Origin: a virus
Lineage: Duplodnaviria; Heunggongvirae; Uroviricota; Caudoviricetes
DNA: 22,932 nucleotides
Strand: one strand, 5' to 3'
Virus record (IMG/VR): IMGVR_UViG_2690316152_000015
Span: 1 to 22,932 of that record
A program made the translations under genes and the position numbers. The notes under the pieces were generated by a model. It ran no database searches, had not been told where the DNA came from, and saw only the letters and a list, made by a program, of their open reading frames with translations. Below, in pieces: positions 9,009-22,380 of this stretch (the stretch's first letter is position 1; each line of letters opens with the position of its first letter).

Positions 9009-9410
9009 TTAAAAACGCGCTAGATAAGAAAATTTAAGGCTAAGTGTCCCAACGATACCCCCATCACTAGAATCATCGTCATAATCGGTATTAGAAGCTA
9101 CTGGAGTGATATCTGAAATAGAGAAGCCCAAATCTTTAAAACGTGGGTTATCCGGCTGAATCTGGATTATCTGGCAAATACCCTCATGAATTTTGGTTTC
9201 ATGAATCTGAGAATATAATTGCATTTCGATAACGCATTCAGCTTGCATTGCATTACCGCCACGAACACGCGTATAAGTTTCATTCATGCCAGTAATCCAA
9301 CAAACCACGTCATCACTAAAGCCTTGCTGAGTTTGTTCTACGTTTAAAGCCAGACCTAAATCTTGTTCGATAATATCTTGCAAGGCGCGTTTGATTTTCA
9401 GTCTCGGCAT
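9009..9410 (-). CDS. Head-tail connector or neck protein
   Basis: Track ORF 9009-9479; likely start is the ATG at 9410 (MPRLKIKRAL...), 4 nt after the upstream stop, avoiding a 65-nt out-of-frame overlap; call by position between capsid and tail genes. Confidence 0.45.
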   Translation of the reverse strand: MPRLKIKRALQDIIEQDLGLALNVEQTQQGFSDDVVCWITGMNETYTRVRGGNAMQAECVIEMQLYSQIHETKIHEGICQIIQIQPDNPRFKDLGFSISDITPVASNTDYDDDSSDGGIVGTLSLKFSYLARF

Positions 9411-14043: not shown

Positions 14044-15948
14044 TTAGAACGATGTTACCCAGCTACGGCCTCTATTTGGACGTCTGGCGATGTTTTGACG
14101 TTGTGGTCGTGTGATTGGCTTACTTTCTTCTATTTGCTCGTCAGATTGCGTTTCAGGAGCTTTTACGGGTTCTTCTGGTTCGCGGTTCAAACTATCTTTG
14201 ATGGCTTCCAGTTTTTCCCATGACATTTTATTAAGCACATGACGATAACTAGCCACGGCATATGTAAGACAGTCCAATCCCTCGTTACGTTGCTGTCCAA
14301 CTTTTACCCAACGTGTCGTATTACCCTGCCGTTTCAACTGTTCAGATAACAATTGTTCGCAGTAGTCATCAGGAACGTCACCAATCTGGAAGACAGTATG
14401 CGGATCGCTGTCTCTCAAGTTCCGGTTAATCATTTCACGGATCATCGTCTTAAGATTGTTTACGCCCAGAATTTTAAGGGTAAAACCGCCCGTTCTTGTG
14501 TCCTTGACCGGAAGGATTGGAGCATCAACATTGCTTGCACCCTTAATGGCGCATAGGTTTTGCCACCTAGTGCAGAAGCGATAGATCACGTTTGTAGCTC
14601 GTCCGTTCGATGAGTCCACGAAAGCAGATAGCATCGGGATTCGTTGACCGGATCGGGTATAGAATTTAGCTTTCAGGAAGTTGTAAAGCTGGTCATATGC
14701 TGGTGATTCGTGGCGTTCGCAGTTCACATCATAGAATGATCGGTGATCAACTACGCATATCCCCTTACGAGAGATACCCAGCAAGGTAGATTCAAGACGG
14801 TCTTTTTGCTGGTCAACACCACTAACCAGAGCAAGTACATCATCAGGAATATTGTCTAGACTAATATCAGTTTTCAGCGTTTCCAGTTCGTCGGCTGTGC
14901 GGTCTTCGTTAAGATCATCGAAGGTTTCACCGAGGACTGTATTGTAGAACGTTGCCAGTGACATATTCGCGTAGCTATCAGCAAAGTCCACCACACACGC
15001 ACGGATAGAACTAAACGGAGACATAAGGCGGTTAGCATGAAAACCGATTACTTCCGCGTTTGGTTCGGTTGCTACCCATTCACCTTGAGCAACAGCACGT
15101 AGGCGAGCCCCTTCTGTCCAATCGGTTTCACATGACGGGCAACGGTAAACGGCTGTGTCAGGATTCGGCAGTGATTTACCATTGATTACATGCCAATCAA
15201 AGAAAACTCTACTCCATTCCATTACGTGTTTGTGTCCGCAATGCTGGCAAGGAACATAGTATTTCCTCTTATCCGAGAGTTCCCATTGTTGGTTTATCGC
15301 CCCATCACGAGCGGTTGGAGTGGAAGCAATTATGATCCTTGCGTCATCCCCGAAAGTGGTTGCGCGTTGTTCCGCTAGTTGGATCGGGTTCCCTTCGTCT
15401 GACTCATCAGCCGCATCAACTTCATCAAGAATAATCAAAGGGAGTGTTTTACCGCGAAGATGTGACGGACTATTCAACGACATGAAATACATGAATGATC
15501 CGTTACGAAGCTGAATAATCGATGAGTTGTTAACGGCATTGCGATCTGACTTGTCGGTGATCATCGCCTTTAATTCTGGGGTTGCCTCTAATACTGGCTT
15601 CACCTTACCCGCAATCCATGAGTTCAATTCTCGAACGTTTGCTTGCAAAACACCGATGTTAGTAGGGTTGCTGGCGATCCTGTGAAAGATAATACCGTTT
15701 AGCACAAGAGTTTTACCCAACTGCGCCGAGCACTTTAGAACAATTTTTCGCCTATCTTCGGTGATCGCGTCCATCATTCCACGTTGGAAGGGATGCAATT
15801 TAATTAGCGATCCGGCTTTAACACCATCGGTAGCAACTACATTAGCCTCTACCCATTCGCTAGGTTTCATGGCTTTAGGTGGGCGAATTGCCGCAGAGAT
15901 ATTTTTAAGAATCTTTTTTAATTTGGCCTTATTAGAAATCAGTTTCAT
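14044..15948 (-). CDS. terL: Terminase large subunit, GpA (lambda A)-like
   Basis: 634-aa ORF; deviant Walker A (CSAQLGKT), Walker B (LIILDEVD), zinc-finger-like CxxC pairs and C-terminal nuclease region as in lambda gpA; first gene of the minus-strand late operon. Confidence 0.9.
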   Translation of the reverse strand: MKLISNKAKLKKILKNISAAIRPPKAMKPSEWVEANVVATDGVKAGSLIKLHPFQRGMMDAITEDRRKIVLKCSAQLGKTLVLNGIIFHRIASNPTNIGVLQANVRELNSWIAGKVKPVLEATPELKAMITDKSDRNAVNNSSIIQLRNGSFMYFMSLNSPSHLRGKTLPLIILDEVDAADESDEGNPIQLAEQRATTFGDDARIIIASTPTARDGAINQQWELSDKRKYYVPCQHCGHKHVMEWSRVFFDWHVINGKSLPNPDTAVYRCPSCETDWTEGARLRAVAQGEWVATEPNAEVIGFHANRLMSPFSSIRACVVDFADSYANMSLATFYNTVLGETFDDLNEDRTADELETLKTDISLDNIPDDVLALVSGVDQQKDRLESTLLGISRKGICVVDHRSFYDVNCERHESPAYDQLYNFLKAKFYTRSGQRIPMLSAFVDSSNGRATNVIYRFCTRWQNLCAIKGASNVDAPILPVKDTRTGGFTLKILGVNNLKTMIREMINRNLRDSDPHTVFQIGDVPDDYCEQLLSEQLKRQGNTTRWVKVGQQRNEGLDCLTYAVASYRHVLNKMSWEKLEAIKDSLNREPEEPVKAPETQSDEQIEESKPITRPQRQNIARRPNRGRSWVTSF

Positions 15949-16035
15949 GTAATTACCCTCATTACGAAATATGAAGGTATTTATTAAGTTGTTGATTTTT
16001 TGATAAATACGGGTATTAAGATTTAAGGGGGTTGT

Positions 16036-16641
16036 ATGCTAATTAATCAGCAACAAAGAGATGAATTAGAATTAGCCTTTTCTTGTTGTACCGATCATGA
16101 ATATCGTTTACCAGTTAAACACAAGCATTTAAAAACAGATATAACCACTTCTGGCTTTAGTCGTGAGGACGCGAAAGAGATTTTAATAGAATTGTACCGC
16201 GATAATGGATATAGAGATCTTCACAACTTCTTTAGAAAGCATCGCACATCACATACAGAGTTTCAGAGAGTCCGAGAATGGTTTGATTTTGACATTAAAC
16301 GGTTCTATCGAGTAGATGGAGGCCAGATCTATAGATTGCAGTGGAAGCCGATCAGAGAAGTGTTGAAACAGACAAGGGATAATATGGCTATTACAATGCC
16401 ACGTAACATAGCTTTTAAGAAAGGATATGGTGATACAAGGGAACTATTCGTTGAACTCGCTAACGTGAAGTACAGCCACTATTACAACGATCCTAAATCC
16501 TTCTTTGAAGTGCTTCGCAAGGTTGATATAAGTCGGGGTACATATTATTCACGGTTGAAGAAGTACGGGATTAAGGTTGAGTTCTTTATGAGTATTGACG
16601 ATGGAGAACTTTTTCCTATAAAATCTAAGTCCTCTAAATAA
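16036..16641 (+). CDS. Hypothetical protein with C-terminal HTH-like segment; low GC, rare codons (moron-like)
   Basis: 201-aa ORF with Shine-Dalgarno AAGGGGG; rich in AGA, ATA, TTA codons unlike neighbours; C-terminal DISRGTYYSRLKKYGIKV resembles the HTH of the two small proteins at 16671-16904 and 20012-20191. Confidence 0.55.
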   Translation: MLINQQQRDELELAFSCCTDHEYRLPVKHKHLKTDITTSGFSREDAKEILIELYRDNGYRDLHNFFRKHRTSHTEFQRVREWFDFDIKRFYRVDGGQIYRLQWKPIREVLKQTRDNMAITMPRNIAFKKGYGDTRELFVELANVKYSHYYNDPKSFFEVLRKVDISRGTYYSRLKKYGIKVEFFMSIDDGELFPIKSKSSK

Positions 16642-16670
16642 AGGTGAACATTCACTTTAATTTGGAGAAA

Positions 16671-16904
16671 ATGACTATGACTACTAAAGCTACTCGCGGT
16701 CGCCCTGCCCGTTTTAACGCTGAACAGATGGCTGATATTGCCTACGCTTACTATACAGCGGATCGTGGTAAGGAAGCGAAAGAACAGATTCTTAGTGAAC
16801 ATGGGATCTCAATCGCCCAATTCTATAAGAATATGAAGAAGTTAGACATTAAATTCTATGTTCAGATCGGTGATGGTCAGATCGTAGAAGCAACAGGTTT
16901 TTGA
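16671..16904 (+). CDS. Small HTH DNA-binding protein (small-terminase or transposase-type HTH)
   Basis: Likely start is the ATG at 16671 (GGAG 5 nt upstream) rather than the track GTG at 16644; motif GRPARF...ILSEHGISIAQFYKNMKK follows the GRP..F...G.S..T.YRWL pattern of Sf6-type TerS and IS3 OrfA HTH domains. Confidence 0.55.
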   Translation: MTMTTKATRGRPARFNAEQMADIAYAYYTADRGKEAKEQILSEHGISIAQFYKNMKKLDIKFYVQIGDGQIVEATGF

Positions 16905-16912
16905 TTCTCTTT

Positions 16913-16938
16913 GCCACTCTTCGGAGTGGCTTTTTTAT
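16913..16938 (+). terminator. Intrinsic terminator for the plus-strand HTH genes
   Basis: GCCACUC-UUCG-GAGUGGC (7-bp stem, UUCG tetraloop) followed by U6. Confidence 0.75.
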
Positions 16939-16949
16939 ACCTACAGAAA

Positions 16950-16978
16950 ACAAAAAAGCCCCTGAAATTCAGGGGCAA
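16950..16978 (-). terminator. Intrinsic terminator for the Rha-family gene (convergent partner)
   Basis: Hairpin GCCCCUGAA/UUCAGGGGC preceded by A6 on the plus strand, giving a U-tract on the minus strand. Confidence 0.7.
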
Positions 16979-16984
16979 AAATTA

Positions 16985-17800
16985 TTACAGTCCAAAGACT
17001 TCCAGAGAGCCAGCATTCTGGCGGATACGTTCAGCAGCTTTATTTTGAATCAGAATAGTGTTGTTCGGTTTAGGCAGATTCAGAGTTGCTTTCTGTTCTT
17101 CTTCCAGAACACCCAATTCAACCAGCACCGGAAGCACATCAACAGTAAACTCAAGCTGGTAATGAGCATTCATGCGGCAGAAAGACAGAGAAGAATCATT
17201 AGCAACATACCCACACGGCTTGTTATTTTCATCATAGACGCGCTCAATATATCCAGCAGTACGCAAGGCCGTCAGTGCTTCTTTAACCTTCGTAGCGCCC
17301 TTTTTAGCGCCTAACAGACGCGTCATTGAATGGCTATCTACAGACTTACGAACATGAAGTTCAATCAGCTTTTTATTTTCGCGAGTTTTCTTTAACGCCA
17401 GTTCGATCCAGTCGGTTTCTTCAAAGTCTGCATACGGGTTAACGGCTAAACGTTCCTGACGCAGTTTTTCATTTTCTTCTTTCAGTCGTTTCCATTCCTG
17501 AATAACAACCAGACGACGATTAACATCGTAACCAGTGACAAGAGTCAGCGTCATTTCTTCGTCTAAGTGATATTCGGTTTGTTCACGTCCACACTGGTCA
17601 AGATAGGTGCGCTCAAAACTGAGCACATCTAATTCCAGAGCATCGAGCATGGATTTAATATCACGTTTAACGTTTTTGTGTTCTTTTCCGGTAAATTCAG
17701 CGATCTGACGGGAAGACATGGTCAGCGGTTTGGTGTTATCAACAACCAGAGACACGGAAGCAGTTTTAACAGCAGTATTCATAACAGTAACAGTATTCAT
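16985..17800 (-). CDS. Rha-family phage regulatory protein or antirepressor
   Basis: 271-aa ORF; N-terminal SSRQIAEFTGKEHKNVKRDI matches the Rha-domain signature as I remember it; C-terminal region resembles antirepressor C-terminal domains. Confidence 0.75.
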   Translation of the reverse strand: MNTVTVMNTAVKTASVSLVVDNTKPLTMSSRQIAEFTGKEHKNVKRDIKSMLDALELDVLSFERTYLDQCGREQTEYHLDEEMTLTLVTGYDVNRRLVVIQEWKRLKEENEKLRQERLAVNPYADFEETDWIELALKKTRENKKLIELHVRKSVDSHSMTRLLGAKKGATKVKEALTALRTAGYIERVYDENNKPCGYVANDSSLSFCRMNAHYQLEFTVDVLPVLVELGVLEEEQKATLNLPKPNNTILIQNKAAERIRQNAGSLEVFGL

Positions 17801-17886
17801 AGTATTAATTCCCCTTAAACGGTTTAGTGATTTGGTCCTCCTAGTTCCGGCATCTCAACCGGAACAATTTTATTTATAAGAAGTTT

Positions 17887-18039
17887 TTATCTCATCTTAG
17901 ATTCGGCAAGACAGCGATCAATTTCTTCTTGAATGAGGCGTTTGCGCTCGTGGAAATCAACCATTGAGAAATTCAGGTTAGGTGTCCACGGTTTGCGGTT
18001 CGGGTTTTTACGTCCATCAATTTTCTTGGTAGTGTTCAT
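17887..18039 (-). CDS. Small basic protein (50 aa), not in the supplied ORF track
   Basis: ATG at 18039 preceded by AAGAGGATG-type Shine-Dalgarno; MNTTKKIDGRKNPNRKPWTPNLNFSMVDFHERKRLIQEEIDRCLAESKMR; lies between the promoter at 18098-18126 and the Rha gene. Confidence 0.4.
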   Translation of the reverse strand: MNTTKKIDGRKNPNRKPWTPNLNFSMVDFHERKRLIQEEIDRCLAESKMR

Positions 18040-18097
18040 AATTAACATCCTCTTTACAAATCTAGGTCAAATCGGTTCAAAGTTGTCAAGTGCGACA

Positions 18098-18126
18098 ATC
18101 ATAAAAAAGCCAGAAAAATTTGTCAA
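18098..18126 (-). promoter_or_regulatory. Sigma70-type promoter directed toward the Rha gene, with overlapping palindromic operator
   Basis: On the minus strand TTGACA (18126-18121), 17-nt spacer, TATGAT (18103-18098); the -35 is one half of the inverted repeat TTGTCAA-N6-TTGACAA (18120-18139); further TTGACA-like hexamers at 18065-18157. Confidence 0.5.
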
Positions 18127-18161
18127 CACCCCTTGACAAGATGCCAAAGGGTTGACCTAAC

Positions 18162-18629
18162 TTACAGCATATCTAAGCCTTCATCATAGCCATAGAAGCC
18201 ATTCTGAGAAGAAAAAGCGATTGGTGCATAGTCATCGTCATCTTCGTCTTGTTCGTCTTCTTCTGGGGCTTCCTGAGCGTTTTCTTTACCGTAGTTAAAC
18301 ATTGCTTCGTCCAGTTCACGAAGAGTCAAGAAGCTACCCAGATCAATGTCACCGGAACGGACTTCAAACGGCAGATCATCACGAACAATAATTGCTGGTA
18401 GATTCTGGTACTTTAAGCGGTCTTCATCGGTGAAGCAGTTAACAACGATGGTCGGCTTCTTATTACGGAAAAACGCATACCATGCACTAGAGAAATGGGA
18501 TTCATCAGAGTTGAAAAGAATGTTGTAACGACGTTCAACAAAGATTTTCATTAACTTGTCATTGTGGAAGCTATCAGCATCAAAACCTAACAGGATGAAA
18601 GGAGTAGTGGTAGTCATTTTATGGTTCAT
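18162..18629 (-). CDS. Hypothetical acidic protein
   Basis: 155-aa ORF with AGAGGA Shine-Dalgarno; C-terminal third strongly acidic (EEDEQDEDDDDY); no recognisable catalytic motif. Confidence 0.55.
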   Translation of the reverse strand: MNHKMTTTTPFILLGFDADSFHNDKLMKIFVERRYNILFNSDESHFSSAWYAFFRNKKPTIVVNCFTDEDRLKYQNLPAIIVRDDLPFEVRSGDIDLGSFLTLRELDEAMFNYGKENAQEAPEEDEQDEDDDDYAPIAFSSQNGFYGYDEGLDML

Positions 18630-18835
18630 AGTGGAAATCCTCTAAAAGAAAGTGAATCAAGTAAGTACACTATTATTTATAACGAGAAAATTTTATCTCT
18701 TTTAGAAGGTGATTGTATTCAGTCGGGCTAAAGCCCTCCTTCATAGATTGTCTAAAAGTACATCAAACGTGGACCCTTCATTATGTAAATTATAGATCAT
18801 ACTCGTTTGAAGAAATAATAATCAGAAAGCAATAT

Positions 18836-18872
18836 AGCAACCGAAGGTTGCAATCCCGAAGGGATACCAATA
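18836..18872 (-). other. Two tandem UUCG-tetraloop hairpins in the minus-strand leader
   Basis: Minus-strand RNA UCCC-UUCG-GGGA and GCAACC-UUCG-GGUUGC, adjacent; upstream of the acidic-protein gene. Confidence 0.4.
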
Positions 18873-18889
18873 CCTTTCATGATCATTAA

Positions 18890-19135
18890 AGTGATCTAGA
18901 ATCATCTAGTAACCAGTTAACTACTATTATCTTCAAAGTGATTATTACTATCTTTCTAGAATCAGTTAGTAACTAGTATTAAATCCCTTTCGAGAAAATC
19001 CTTTCAGAAGTGATTCTCGATGCCACGCAGTGGCGTCGCAGACGTTTGAGAGTGAGCGAAGCGAGCAAGCAAACTAGTTAATTCCTTCTAAGACCATCTA
19101 GTATCATCTAGTTTAAATTAGTTGTTACTAGAAGC
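18890..19135. repeat. CTAG-rich direct and inverted repeats (candidate operator array)
   Basis: Nine CTAG tetramers in about 240 bp; repeated CTAGAATCA[TG][CT]TAGTAAC[CT]AGT at about 18896 and 18957, related CATCTAGT copies near 19096-19115; internal palindromes AGTTAACT and ACTAGT. Confidence 0.5.
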
Positions 19136-19261
19136 AATTGGTTGGCGCTTCGCGCAGTCGGGCTACGCCCTCCTAATATCTTTTTGGTTATTTGTTGTTT
19201 TTAGTTTTACACATGAGCGTAGCGAATGTGTTTATATAATATCTATGTACGCCGAATCCCC

Positions 19262-19447
19262 GCTTTTGCCCCTCACTAAGTTAATGTTTTATAAAGAGTT
19301 TTTCTCACCATTCCTTTTCGGGGGCAAATTTCAGGGGCAAAAATTAGATTTTCAGGGGCAATTATTGACATTTCAGGGGCAAAAATGGGATAGTGGAATC
19401 TTGGGGATTTTGTTCGGGGGCAAAAATTCAAAATTTCAGGGGCAATT
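19262..19447. repeat. Iteron-like array: six direct and one inverted copy of TTYCRGGGGCAA(A) with 21-bp periodicity
   Basis: GGGGCAA cores at 19321, 19334, 19355, 19376, 19417, 19439 (spacings 13, 21, 21, 41, 22) plus inverted copy at 19266-19272; followed by perfect palindrome CTATCAAA-TAT-TTTGATAG (19449-19467) and an AT-rich tract. Confidence 0.6.
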
Positions 19448-19641
19448 TCTATCAAATATTTTGATAGAAAATTCTTGTATATTATTTAACCAAAAAATCA
19501 CCAAAAATCGCTGCAACTTAATGATTTAAAAGAAATTTTCACTTACAAACGCAGTCATAATAGGTTATAAAGGTTGATAATCGTTATTCGCCATTTTCAA
19601 GCAAAATTTTTGATAGTCTTTTCTCGCTTAGATCAAGGGTA

Positions 19642-19670
19642 TTGACAACTGTCAAGAACTATTTTATACT
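19642..19670 (+). promoter_or_regulatory. Near-consensus sigma70 promoter with palindromic operator over the -35
   Basis: TTGACA (19642-19647), 17-nt spacer, TATACT (19665-19670); the -35 lies in the inverted repeat TTGACA-AC-TGTCAA. Confidence 0.65.
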
Positions 19671-19676
19671 TTTTCT

Positions 19677-19834
19677 CGTTGGTGGGGGTTGAAATTTTCT
19701 AAACAGTCCCCATATAGATGATAAGCAAGAATTTCCGCGTTATAAATACATGTGTGAAATGATTGTTCACTTCTGAAAATCCCCTGATTCACTGTTAATT
19801 CATACAGCACTGGTTAGATATACAGTGCTTTTTC
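19677..19834 (+). ncRNA. Candidate short transcript or attenuated leader from the promoter at 19642
   Basis: Predicted start about 19677; intrinsic terminator AGCACUG-10 nt loop-CAGUGCU followed by U5 at 19806-19834; duplicated GATATACAGTG and TTATAAATACA[AT]GTG motifs in the leader; the first downstream gene starts at 20012. Confidence 0.3.
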
Positions 19835-20011
19835 GGTTGAATAATGTACGAATTGATTAATTATTAATCTTCTCTTTAGCAATTCGTGCTCCCACTGATC
19901 GGATATACAGTGGTTTTACAGGGTTTTCTGAAAATCATTTTATAAATACAAGTGTTCAGAGCGAAAAGCTCTTTTTTAAGATTTTTTAAACCTAACAATA
20001 GGGGATTAAAA

Positions 20012-20191
20012 ATGGCTAAACCTGTACGATTCACACGAGAGGTATTGCTTCCGATTGCTAAACGTTATTTTGAAGCGATGCAGGGTGACAAGCTGGCGGT
20101 TTTGAAGGAAGAAGGAATTGATCCTTCTGATTTTAGAAAACTGCTAAAACGATATGACATTAAAGTGAAGATTGAAGCTACCGTTTGGTAA
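20012..20191 (+). CDS. Small HTH DNA-binding protein, paralog of 16671-16904
   Basis: Likely start ATG at 20012 (AGGGGA Shine-Dalgarno) rather than the track GTG at 19952; KPVRF...VLKEEGIDPSDFRKLLKRYDIKV aligns with the 16671-16904 product at about one third identity by eye. Confidence 0.55.
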   Translation: MAKPVRFTREVLLPIAKRYFEAMQGDKLAVLKEEGIDPSDFRKLLKRYDIKVKIEATVW

Positions 20192-20224
20192 TAACCTTTC
20201 ACTGAGAATTATATGATGGCTTTA

Positions 20225-20262
20225 AAAATAAAAAAGCCCCCTTGCGGCAACAAGGAGGCTTT
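20225..20262. terminator. Stem-loop flanked by A-run and T-run (possibly bidirectional terminator)
   Basis: AAAAAA-GCCCCCTTG-CGGCAA-CAAGGAGGC-TTT; 8 of 9 stem positions pair. Confidence 0.45.
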
Positions 20263-20305
20263 CAACATGACACATTAACTAACAAGAGTATTCAGGAGTA
20301 TTTAT

Positions 20306-21265
20306 ATGTTATTTTCCGCTAACTTTTTCACTAACGAAGTAACCAACGCTAAAGCAGTTATCAAATTTGGCACCGAAGCAAACAAGAAGATTCAGCCGAA
20401 AGTTGTTGCTCATGTTTCCTTTGCGCAGCAGAAATCCGCTTTCGCTGGCTTTAAAGCACATCGTGAAGCACTGATCGCGGCTGGCTTTGGTGTTGACGGT
20501 AAACTGCCTAACGGCGTTCGTAAAGCAATCGACCGCGTTAAACCTGCTAAAGACGTTGCAGTAGACCACATCGTTACTTTCACCGTTAAGAACTCTTCTG
20601 AACTGTTCCACCTGGTGATTGCTGGTGATACTGCTATCGTTTCCGCTCCTAACATGGATTTTCAGGATACCGCTGATTGTCAAATCACCTTCGGTCGTCG
20701 TAAAGAAGTTACTGGAAAAGCTAAACTGAACTTCACCAAATCCGGCAATACTTACTTTGCTGTATTCTTTAACAGCCATGCTACCGAGAAAGAAGTTGTA
20801 GAACTGGTTGCATATGAAGGTGAAGAAAAAGCACGTATTGAATCCTGCGACGCTTTCGTAGAACTGGAAGCACAAGTTAAGGCGGTTGCTCCTGTTGTTG
20901 AAGATCGTCTGGCTGCACTGGAAGCAGAGATTGCAGAACTGAAAGCTGCACTGAAAGAAAAAGACCAGATCATCGAAGCCCAGAAAGCTGAGATTGAAGA
21001 ACTGAAAGCTAAAGAAGTTGCTCCAGTGGCAGTTGAAGCCGAACAGGAAGTTGAATCTAAAGACTTCTTTACTCAAGCGGTTGAAGCTAAAGACAAACAA
21101 GCTCTTTGGATTCTGCTTAACGAAAAACGCTCTGTGACCGACGTTGCAGAGTGGAACAAATATCTGGTTAAGAAAAACGGTACTTCTGTTCAATTCATCG
21201 ATTTAATGACTGTTCAAGTTTTTGATGCGTTCGAAAATGTGTTCGACGTTCGCAAAGCAGCTTAA
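20306..21265 (+). CDS. Hypothetical protein with central coiled coil; codon usage of a highly expressed gene
   Basis: 319-aa ORF with CAGGAG Shine-Dalgarno; strong preference for CTG, CGT, GAA, AAA, GCT codons; heptad-like segment RLAALEAEIAELKAALKEKDQIIEAQKAEIEELKAKE; function not recognised. Confidence 0.6.
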   Translation: MLFSANFFTNEVTNAKAVIKFGTEANKKIQPKVVAHVSFAQQKSAFAGFKAHREALIAAGFGVDGKLPNGVRKAIDRVKPAKDVAVDHIVTFTVKNSSELFHLVIAGDTAIVSAPNMDFQDTADCQITFGRRKEVTGKAKLNFTKSGNTYFAVFFNSHATEKEVVELVAYEGEEKARIESCDAFVELEAQVKAVAPVVEDRLAALEAEIAELKAALKEKDQIIEAQKAEIEELKAKEVAPVAVEAEQEVESKDFFTQAVEAKDKQALWILLNEKRSVTDVAEWNKYLVKKNGTSVQFIDLMTVQVFDAFENVFDVRKAA

Positions 21266-21285
21266 TTTTAATTGGAGACCCTACT

Positions 21286-21657
21286 ATGGCAACTTTAAAC
21301 GAAAAAGCATTGTCACGTAAAACTCTGAAAGAGAAAAACATGATTCTTTCTGAAACGCTAAAACAGACTAATGCTGAGTGTGAGTTCTTGACCATTAAAC
21401 TTTCACTTAAAGAGAAAGAATGTAAGGAACTAATTGAAATGAATCGTTCTCTTTTGGAAAAGATGGAACGGATTGAATCCTTCTATGATAGTTACGTGAA
21501 ACTTAGTGAAGACTTTAAAGCCATGCAAGAAGACTACAAGAAATCGTTGAGGGAACAGATTAAACTGCATGAAGAATTGAAGGGCTATCGTGAAAAGGCT
21601 GTTAAAGAAAAGAAAGTACAGAAGATGAAAAACAAAGGATTGCGGCTTGTTGCATAA
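21286..21657 (+). CDS. Hypothetical coiled-coil protein
   Basis: 123-aa ORF with GGAG Shine-Dalgarno, 21 nt after the upstream stop; Lys/Glu-rich helical composition. Confidence 0.55.
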   Translation: MATLNEKALSRKTLKEKNMILSETLKQTNAECEFLTIKLSLKEKECKELIEMNRSLLEKMERIESFYDSYVKLSEDFKAMQEDYKKSLREQIKLHEELKGYREKAVKEKKVQKMKNKGLRLVA

Positions 21658-21664
21658 TAAAAAA

Positions 21665-21692
21665 GGGAGTCCCATTTAAGAGACTCCCTTGA
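21665..21692. terminator. Stem-loop terminator at the end of the plus-strand gene pair
   Basis: GGGAGUC-10 nt loop-GACUCCC; A-run upstream gives a U-tract on the minus strand. Confidence 0.5.
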
Positions 21693-21761
21693 CTTAGGTT
21701 AAGGTTAGGTTTGCACAACAAGATGAGGTTTATAATGAACATGATGCTACATTATCTAGTA

Positions 21762-21795
21762 AAGCCAGAAAAATAACCGCCTCTTTCGAGGCGGG
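21762..21795 (-). terminator. Intrinsic terminator for the small-peptide transcription unit
   Basis: Minus-strand hairpin CCGCCUC-GAAAGA-GGCGG followed by UUAUUUUUCUGGCUUU. Confidence 0.5.
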
Positions 21796-21953
21796 AGGAT
21801 TAATACTCAATCTATACTTGTTATGTTTTTATGATGTATAGATCACTGACTATGAAAACACTGTACTGGAGTGTGTTTTATGGCTTTTAATCGGGAACTC
21901 TCTTTCAAAAGCTCCCTGTTAATAACCATGTAGGAGAAAGGCAGATTACAATA

Positions 21954-22127
21954 TTATTTAGTGTCTGATTTACAGCAGCAAAAAAGAATAAACAAAAAGA
22001 AGCATACCCAGCCGTAAGGCGTACCGATTAGAAATTTGAAAAACACCACCAGCGATATAAAAATTAATTTAACACCAGCGACGATAGTCAAAAACAGCAG
22101 AGTAGCGAAATAGACAAAAAGATCCAT
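21954..22127 (-). CDS. Small hydrophobic membrane peptide (57 aa), not in the supplied track
   Basis: ATG at 22127 preceded by AAGAGGATTATCT; MDLFVYFATLLFLTIVAGVKLIFISLVVFFKFLIGTPYGWVCFFLFILFCCCKSDTK; two predicted hydrophobic helices. Confidence 0.45.
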   Translation of the reverse strand: MDLFVYFATLLFLTIVAGVKLIFISLVVFFKFLIGTPYGWVCFFLFILFCCCKSDTK

Positions 22128-22180
22128 AGATAATCCTCTTTGAAAACGACCATCATCTATAGTTCAATTCATCGATTTAA

Positions 22181-22282
22181 TTAATGATACTTGAAAGCGT
22201 TACACACAGCAGAAATGCCAATATGTGCAAGTGAATATACGATAGTTAATCCTACAGCCAGATAAATCAAAAATTCAACCAT
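22181..22282 (-). CDS. Small hydrophobic peptide (33 aa), not in the supplied track
   Basis: ATG at 22282 preceded by GAGGATTTACCT; MVEFLIYLAVGLTIVYSLAHIGISAVCNAFKYH; same Shine-Dalgarno style as the 57-aa ORF. Confidence 0.35.
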   Translation of the reverse strand: MVEFLIYLAVGLTIVYSLAHIGISAVCNAFKYH

Positions 22283-22299
22283 AGGTAAATCCTCAAATA

Positions 22300-22331
22300 A
22301 GAAAAAGGTTAGCGGGGGGTGATTCCCCCCG
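22300..22331 (-). terminator. Intrinsic terminator downstream of the Nu1-like gene
   Basis: CGGGGGG-UGAUU-CCCCCCG hairpin followed on the minus strand by UAACCUUUUUC. Confidence 0.55.
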
Positions 22332-22380
22332 TAGACGTTGACCAACTCAACATCTTTCATACATTTATTTATAACGCGTT

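Follow-up and report, generated by a model that had tools for sequence, protein, structure and literature searches.

The viral DNA studied here, positions 1 to 22,932 of IMG/VR record IMGVR_UViG_2690316152_000015 (22,932 nt, hereafter the window), carries most of an E. coli prophage whose two terminase genes, terL for a GpA-type large subunit and terS for a Nu1-type small subunit, are separated by 6.4 kb. This gap, referred to below as the block, comprises a 1.3-kb non-coding hub and four short gene units that alternate in orientation. We consider it probable that the split terminase is the native, conserved plan of an uncharacterised Enterobacterales prophage lineage of about 35 kb, in which the control region lies between the terminase genes. 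A complete member is present in E. coli GN4741 (35.3 kb, 2799508-2834835), where it is inserted in ycdX.

Conservation of the split layout

A first-pass annotation of the window had reported a Nu1-like small terminase gene 6.4 kb away from the GpA-type terL and had taken the DNA in between for an insertion or accessory hotspot within the packaging module. The gene coordinates bear out the separation (Table 1), and the inventory drawn up for the block (peptide open reading frames (ORFs), a plus-strand gene pair, iterons, CTAG repeats, two promoters, a Rha gene and three paralogs) was recovered in full, every item at or near the place it had been given. The statement that terS and terL are not co-transcribed also stands, because convergent and divergent units lie between them and preclude a common transcript; in phage lambda, Nu1 and A overlap and are co-transcribed, whereas here 6.4 kb and four transcription units set the two genes apart. 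It is the insertion that we do not retain: the block is present, and its gene order kept, in all relatives over several genera.

The relatives come from about 25 distinct IMG/VR proviruses, 5426 complete E. coli genomes, a further enterobacterial assembly (L041) and sequences from Proteus (L043), Edwardsiella (L044) and Atlantibacter (L045). Mapping of the block proteins onto the IMG/VR proviruses by tblastn placed terS always 6.1-7.6 kb from terL and revealed a fixed order: terS is followed by the small membrane peptide or peptides, by a large protein and hth79 (leftward) and by a non-coding hub of 1.2-1.4 kb, past which come g155, sometimes accompanied by g53 or a 110-aa protein, and rha (rightward), then hth86 and g201 (leftward), and finally terL. 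The alleles of the block are mosaic among relatives, with identities of 43-99%. The block was found in about 1% of the complete E. coli genomes (64 of 5426), and the hosts of the lineage comprise E. coli, Salmonella, Shigella, Proteus, Edwardsiella and Atlantibacter. The layout is kept in L041, whose terS is 59% identical, and the split is likewise kept in the Proteus and Edwardsiella members. Atlantibacter (terS 37%, TerL 50% identical) retains only a reduced core, a 4.7-kb block in which a 1.6-kb hub separates a leftward operon from a rightward gene. Over the relatives examined, the block measures 4.7-7.4 kb. We observed no presence/absence polymorphism of the block among syntenic relatives; its core is in every one of them, and small slots alone vary.

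Because the layout persists down to 37% identity in terS and 50% in TerL, the separation appears to be ancestral and fixed in the lineage and not the result of an insertion, yet it is unusual for GpA systems. A baseline came from 49 distant GpA-type terL genes of other bacteria: 34 abut a co-directional ORF of 128-221 aa, the canonical arrangement. In this lineage, a divergent gene occupies that position instead. The lambda-type arrangement, with terS directly upstream of terL and co-transcribed with it, was found neither in the window nor in any relative. The first-pass annotation had reasoned that the Nu1-like gene would not be the packaging subunit if relatives uniformly showed the same arrangement together with a different small terminase gene beside terL. 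The relatives do uniformly show the split layout, but none has such a second gene, which leaves the Nu1-like gene as the only terS candidate.

No deposited phage matched the region by megablast, and tblastn of terS against these phages gave none at an E value of 1e-5 and DCP80 only at a relaxed threshold. A scan of one genome per species with a terS profile had no matches; the corresponding TerL-profile scan added the Atlantibacter member and the distant GpA genes used as the baseline. Literature searches on ycdX prophages, on DCP80 and on non-adjacent terminase genes turned up nothing on this lineage. The nearest deposited phage sequence is the first 30.7 kb of DCP80 (PQ671644.1), with a TerL 44% and a terS 33% identical. 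It shares the W-portal-capsid order, a gene-free 1.3-kb hub with the motif GAGCGAAGCG and CTAG-type repeats upstream of the terL operon, and sense-oriented TATAAATA boxes, both of which are described below. Its terS is not adjacent to terL either; the late cluster opens with terL and closes with the terS homolog, which puts about 6.2 kb between them if the sequence is circular, and the split layout probably holds in this contig as well. DCP80 differs in that no integrase is annotated and in that the record also holds T4-like motA, rIIA and ndd and a gp55-like sigma factor. The record is filed as a T4-like Gaprivervirus, contains N-gaps at 30711, 40994, 131336, 134646 and 137895 and has duplicated ndd and rIIA. 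The part up to the first N-gap encodes ORFans foreign to T4, lambda-like head proteins and a GpA terminase, and looks like a genome of the present lineage in its own right. We think it probable that a T4-like phage and a member of this lineage were mixed or wrongly scaffolded together in the assembly.

Cos phages with non-adjacent terminase genes exist elsewhere. In P2 and 186, the terS gene M and the terL gene P lie in divergent operons, which provides a precedent for separate but coordinate transcription from late promoters of one class. These phages use other terminase families, however, and the P2 genes are separated by scaffold and capsid genes and not by an early or regulatory region.

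The block as a candidate control region

The block holds the prophage's only candidate regulators, its only good sigma70 promoter and its only iteron and AT-rich region within 35 kb. Outside the block, the GN4741 prophage encodes a large serine recombinase, four small ORFans beside the recombinase, an endonuclease-like protein, an M15 endolysin and structural genes, and we recognised no repressor, antirepressor, replication or antitermination gene among these proteins. Because the prophage is devoid of other recognisable regulatory or replication genes, we infer that the block is most likely its early/control region and probably also its replication region.

Iteron type and large operon protein vary together. 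A GGGGCAA-type array (6-9 copies in one orientation) is present in all 12 loci that encode g319, and a TGTAGG-type array in all 10 loci in which a 333-aa protein replaces g319. This protein is unrelated to g319 yet alike in architecture (N-domain, coiled coil, acidic linker and C-domain). Because array and large protein are always exchanged together, g319 and the iterons appear to be a cognate protein-DNA pair. Allele c of hth79, a gene located between the array and the large protein, occurs with both iteron types, which implies recombination between array and protein without breaking of the pairing. A seventh GGGGCAA copy in the window (16968) was considered as a second binding site and rejected, as type A and type B loci alike have it within a terminator hairpin.

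Because g319 is an ORFan, we can only infer that iterons, AT-rich DNA and g319 most likely constitute an origin with its initiator. As in the iteron origins of lambda (ori/O), P1 (oriR/RepA) and P4 (ori-crr/alpha), 6-9 direct repeats in one orientation lie by AT-rich DNA, beside the promoter of an operon that encodes a co-varying protein, and the array is exchanged with a specific protein. In contrast to these systems, g319 has no similarity to initiators and contains a long coiled coil, and the iterons lie about 900 bp from its gene with one gene between. Homology of g319 to initiator families of iteron replicons was found neither in Pfam, PHROG or NCBIfam, none of which gave any match, nor among representative sequences or by fold. 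The N-domain has about four real relatives among 1.84 billion representatives, and its matches to large repeat proteins were discarded as HRM/BACON repeat noise. The AlphaFold2 (AF2) model of g319 was poor (predicted local distance difference test (pLDDT) 61), and all Foldseek matches in the PDB had a root-mean-square deviation (rmsd) above 10 A; no fold was inferred from it.

The hth79-g319-g123 operon is preceded by a sigma70-type promoter that is conserved in both leader types and whose palindrome TTGACAnnTGTCAA occurs once per locus in 21 loci. Its leader is predicted to fold with a minimum free energy of -83.7 kcal/mol (z = -3.84) and contains two or three terminator-like hairpins (CACTGG...CAGTG plus a T-run, twice, and AGAGCgaaaaGCTCT plus a T-run); it looks like an attenuation or antitermination switch. 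The likeliest start of hth79 is the ATG at 20012, as opposed to 19952 in the earlier description. At the start of g319, a conserved ATATAAATAC box (20298-20307, minus strand) points antisense through hth79 toward the hub and keeps its place in relatives of either type, A or B; it may mark an antisense or counter-transcript promoter.

A different role for the hub has to be weighed here. The hub (18630-19951) could be or contain cos, so that terS and terL would flank their own site and the iterons and hairpins would be binding sites of terminase or an accessory protein. We regard this as possible but doubtful. The gene-free hub, with GAGCGAAGCG and GC-rich mini-hairpins (GCCAC-gca-GTGGC, GGCGC-ttc-GCGC and GGGC-tac-GCCC in the window), is the only non-coding feature common to all members including Atlantibacter and DCP80, and the DCP80 record begins exactly at the hub, although this start may be arbitrary. 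The motif GAGCGAAGCG (19054-19063) is present in one or two copies in the hub of every member checked, including these two; it contains GCGAAGC, known as a very stable DNA mini-hairpin, and a cos or a priming signal are possible roles. The other place to look for cos, a 225-bp GC-rich leader upstream of terS with a symmetric GTCGC-TAC-GCGAC, is conserved only in the E. coli/Salmonella group and is not found in Atlantibacter or DCP80. However, iterons and hairpins differ between the two types and follow g319 or the 333-aa protein in their variation, and not the nearly invariant terS or the two TerL alleles.

Among the remaining block proteins, the Rha-family regulator is a member of its family by a Phage_pRha domain above the gathering score (Table 1). 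The three helix-turn-helix (HTH) paralogs named in the first-pass annotation are indeed paralogs by BLAST clustering and domain alignment: hth86 groups with hth79, and both internal copies in g201 align with them, giving four domain copies in three proteins. The HTH fold itself is less secure, as the domain has no Pfam assignment and gave only sub-threshold matches to assorted HTH families; sub-threshold gp33-family (PF16805) matches occur in 5 of 37 hth79-family members. The domain family comprises 62 clusters and is confined to this prophage lineage (E. coli, Shigella, Salmonella, Providencia, Proteus and Edwardsiella). Comparison of its profile with PDB sequences revealed no relationship, nor did comparison with the terS profile. 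The end of g155 is a strongly acidic stretch followed by ...GFYGYDEGLDML, which recalls DNA-mimic or clamp/single-stranded-DNA-binding-protein-tail-like peptides; no homology was found.

Three further claims about the block have to be revised. It had been proposed as a likely site of defence or anti-defence functions, but PADLOC returned no match for block proteins other than coiled-coil noise (E at least 6e-4), and variable cargo sits elsewhere, on the attachment-site side of terS. A composition described as atypical corresponds to a GC content of 0.32-0.45, that of AT-rich regulatory rather than foreign DNA (whole prophage about 42%). No terminator stands right after terS; the hairpins come after the terS-p59-p57 unit. 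NCBIfam yielded nothing for the block proteins, which appear to be lineage-restricted ORFans, and Rfam gave only chance-level matches on the block.

The probable small terminase gene and the recurrent boxes

The Nu1-like gene, annotated as 'hypothetical protein' in RefSeq, is very probably terS. Its ATG is the exact end of the window, and it leads a short unit of its own, terS-p59-p57, beside the attachment site. The protein matches the profile of phrog_57 'terminase small subunit' over its full length (3.3e-15, residues 1-168). The DCP80 homolog matches phrog_57 (9.4e-20) and phrog_141 (terS, 1e-7), with a secondary match to the excisionase family phrog_66, and the Edwardsiella homolog has precomputed weak Pfam matches to DUF1441 and Phage_Nu1. 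An AF2 model based on 17 homologs (pLDDT 71 overall, 81-88 in the N-terminal part) starts with a winged HTH at the N terminus, followed by long helices and an acidic tail that is disordered. The protein may parallel lambda gpNu1 in this build, with a winged HTH possibly of gpNu1 type ahead of helical and acidic C-terminal parts. Foldseek ranked the DNA-binding domain of gpNu1 (1J9I) first in the PDB, with a probability of 0.96 and an rmsd of 2.3 A over 52 aa but a weak E value of 0.41, and Xis and MerR folds scored similarly. BLASTP aligned lambda Nu1 only with the N-terminal 27 aa (residues 4-30), and the likeness to Nu1 is remote.

Because the gene adjoins attP, the chief rival reading makes it a MerR-type regulator, a recombination directionality factor or an excisionase and supposes that the true terS went unrecognised. 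The gene is divergent from the serine-integrase operon, the DCP80 homolog has the phrog_66 match just mentioned, and the folds of Xis, RdfS, BldC and MerR score about as weakly against the terS model as 1J9I does. We nevertheless judge this explanation unlikely: the full-length phrog_57 matches and the phrog_141 match are to small terminases, gpNu1 ranks first among structures, the homolog is kept at the late-cluster end of the DCP80 contig, where no integrase is annotated, and no other terS-like ORF was found upstream of terL in any relative examined.

The large subunit carries both large-subunit domains in Pfam, GpA_ATPase (PF05876, 2.9e-61) and GpA_nuclease (PF20454, 1.8e-45), and its gene is followed, as in lambda, by a W-like gene and then a lambda-B-type portal gene. 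It exists as two alleles that are about 58% identical overall and about 55% in the body (window 14044-15948 versus L017 6970-8877), with identical first 14 residues and 36 of the last 40 in common. These conserved ends could reflect kept contacts to portal and terS, or may just mark the limits of recombination. Co-variation of terS variants with the two TerL alleles was tested for and not found; either allele is met with every terS variant and with each iteron type.

A 10-nt box, T[T/G/A]ATAAATA[A/C], occurs seven times in the window against 0.88 expected. All copies are intergenic in the block and sense-oriented; terL, g201, rha, g155 and p59 each have one upstream and hth79 has two, at a distance of 14-79 nt. 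Relatives that reach past the window end have the same box 40 nt upstream of terS and another that points to the integrase side. Thirteen loci, among them the distant L041, keep these positions, as does Proteus, and Atlantibacter has TATAAATAA upstream of terS. The copies have no -35 element in common. The boxes can be regarded as putative promoters of one class, and their core is identical to TATAAATA, the octamer consensus of T4 late promoters. As with the T4 late promoters served by gp55, gp33 and gp45, the octamer lies tens of bases upstream of gene starts without a -35; the differences are that the element here is a temperate, siphovirus-like prophage and that it encodes no gp55 homolog detectable by tblastn with the DCP80 gp55-like protein or by PHROG and Pfam scans. 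With low confidence, we propose that nearly all units, including terS and terL, are headed by a T4-late-type putative promoter that is read by a factor of the element's own, for which the HTH-like paralogs are candidates, or by the late sigma factor of a superinfecting T-even phage.

In its stricter form, in which gp55 of a superinfecting T-even phage reads the boxes and the prophage is largely silent until then, we give this idea little credence. It would account for the T4 octamer, the lack of a -35, the poor sigma70 fit and the lack of a gp55 gene in the element, and it fits with the T-even-type long tail fibre and gp38-like adhesin genes of the prophage (Table 1) and with the T4-like contigs scaffolded with a relative in the DCP80 record. 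All of this is circumstantial, however, and the DCP80 record may be a mixed or mis-scaffolded assembly. An element-encoded factor, such as a paralogous HTH protein, could read the boxes, and T-even infection brings breakdown of host DNA or a block on the transcription of DNA that is unmodified.

Our working model of a native split terminase with an intervening control region would operate as follows. The single operator-bearing sigma70 promoter would fire the hth79-g319-g123 operon through its structured leader, and g319 would act on the iterons and the AT-rich DNA, most likely as initiator at an origin. The TATAAATA boxes would switch on terS, terL and the small units together in trans, replacing lambda-style co-transcription, and terS would still work with TerL as the packaging recognition subunit. 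Several points weigh against this model. The boxes fit sigma70 poorly, judging from the -10 consensus, and their activity as promoters of one class is deduced from sequence. The terS product scores 15.3 bits (E 0.016) for Phage_Nu1 (PF07471) in Pfam, below the gathering cutoff of 30. Pfam, PHROG, PADLOC, NCBIfam, representative and fold searches revealed no block protein homologous to a repressor, replication initiator, helicase loader or sigma factor, and because of this our functional labels for the block are taken from context. The cos site was not located, and no clear DnaA boxes were recognised in the hub by eye. A few small slots within the block do vary (p57/p59 versus a 94-aa membrane protein in other relatives, g53 versus the 110-aa protein, an extra Rha-like gene, and g123); the block may therefore contain a minor accessory component. 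Finally, the window copy, with its tape-measure gene cut by an insertion sequence (IS), is unsuitable for a direct test of the model.

The prophage, its cargo and implications

The prophage appears to integrate by a serine integrase. In GN4741, terS lies 355 bp from the ycdX junction; other members are inserted in a hicB-like gene or near ydiL-region genes, with terS again at the prophage end. In the ycdX lysogens (GN4741; L037 26225-27535), ghrA and, downstream of it, the 5' fragment of ycdX are oriented toward terS at this distance of only 355 bp, and host read-through into terS is conceivable. The interrupted hicB-like gene (L002 1-351) and ycdX (L021 7874-8299) both end in ...VNP(K/Q) at the junction, which suggests a short common att core that is read in frame.

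The variable cargo slot of the lineage lies between terS and the attachment site. It contains a reverse transcriptase-TIR protein in Edwardsiella (L044 13413-15044; RVT_1 3e-19, TIR_2 3e-17) and a secreted 264-aa protein in one E. coli member (L002 523-1317). This placement bears on the proposal that an ancestral adjacent Nu1-A pair was split by a mobile or hypervariable island with defence or anti-defence genes. ORFan block proteins, mosaic alleles, slots gained or lost among relatives and the acidic g155 tail as a possible DNA mimic would suit such an island, but we consider it very unlikely and largely refuted by synteny, given that no relative has the adjacent pair down to 37% terS identity, the core order is conserved, PADLOC matches nothing, the prophage would be left without any other regulatory module, and the clear cargo genes are on the att side of terS.

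The late operon runs on the minus strand from 15948 down to 891 in the window and is about 20 kb long; it encodes TerL, the W-like head-tail joining protein, the lambda-B-type portal, a protease-capsid fusion, tail proteins and the tape-measure protein. Because an IS truncates the tape-measure gene, the window copy is probably tail-defective and thus probably a defective prophage. The T-even-type fibre and gp38-like adhesin genes lie inside an otherwise siphovirus-like tail module, which points to gene exchange with T-even phages. ARAGORN predicted a 91-nt tRNA-Gln(ttg) at 9154-9244 on the plus strand, opposite a 156-aa ORF of the late operon; it is possibly spurious.

Table 1. Coordinates of features in the window, in order of position, with copies of the hub motif in other members in the last line
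Feature	Coordinates	Strand	Remarks
IS3-family transposase orfB	1-888	+	rve and HTH_21 domains; GC 55%
Tape-measure gene, truncated	891-2642	-	abuts IS; cut at about residue 571 of the 809-aa GN4741 version
gp38-like adhesin	3383-3889		phrog_1121, 4.6e-35
T-even-type long tail fibre distal subunit, 1164 aa	4595-8089		phrog_1699, 4e-138
terL, GpA type	14044-15948	-	heads late operon; Pfam match
Divergent control region, 87 bp	15949-16035	.	back-to-back boxes between terL and g201
Box TAATAAATAC	15977-15986	-	38 nt before terL ATG
Box TGATAAATAC	16001-16010	+	35 nt before g201 ATG
g201	16036-16641	+	two tandem copies of paralog domain; divergent from terL
hth86	16671-16904	+	paralog; unit g201-hth86
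Bidirectional terminator hairpins	16913-16976	.	between hth86 and rha; include seventh GGGGCAA copy
rha, Rha-family regulator	16985-17800	-	PF09669 1.7e-13, 51.4 bits (cutoff 29.9); phrog_63 anti-repressor 8.9e-19
g53	17887-18048	-	ORF of g155-g53-rha unit
Second sigma70-like promoter	18126-18098	-	between g155 and g53; beside TTGTCAA-N6-TTGACAA, half-sites as in TTGACAnnTGTCAA promoter
g155	18162-18629	-	acidic C-terminal tail
Hub, left part	18630-19316	.	CTAG repeats, GC-rich mini-hairpins, GAGCGAAGCG
CTAG repeats	18895-19113		in left part of hub
Iteron array, 6 x TTCRGGGGCAA	19317-19445	+	one orientation; 7 matches in window, 0.01 expected
AT-rich stretch, about 190 bp	within 19317-19641		downstream of iteron array; palindrome CTATCAAATATTTTGATAG
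Sigma70-type promoter TTGACA-17-TATACT	19642-19670	+	-35 inside palindrome TTGACAnnTGTCAA (TTGACAACTGTCAA)
Leader of hth79-g319 operon, about 340 nt	19671-20011	+	structured; two TATAAATA-type boxes (TTATAAATAC)
hth79	20012-20191	+	ORF; first of hth79-g319-g123 operon
g319	20306-21265	+	N-terminal ORFan domain, coiled coil, C-terminal domain
g123	21286-21657	+	coiled coil
Terminator-like hairpins	21777-21794; 21663-21690	.	between terS unit and convergent g123
p59 and p57, small hydrophobic peptides	22181-22360; 21954-22127	-	ORFs; co-oriented with terS; variable slot
terS (very probable), Nu1-type small terminase, 183 aa	22381-22932	-	phrog_57 match
GAGCGAAGCG elsewhere	DCP80 L001 729-738, 878-887; Atlantibacter L045 8389-8398, 8593-8602; Edwardsiella L044 8225-8234

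Non-adjacent terminase genes as such are already known, from M and P of P2. For the present lineage, our results mean that separation of terS from terL need not signal a cargo hotspot, that the real variable cargo slot can be placed between terS and the attachment site, and that annotation pipelines which expect terS beside terL will miss terS. They also define an unstudied prophage family whose whole control region consists of lineage-restricted ORFans, and they open two pairs to testing: g319 with its iterons, and the TATAAATA boxes with the factor that reads them. What could prove new are the TATAAATA boxes, the pairing of iterons with an ORFan and the possible T-even connection. If terS, terL and nearly all other units were indeed driven from T4-late-type promoters, this would, together with an ORFan, iteron-binding coiled-coil replicator, amount to a new regulatory logic for a temperate phage.

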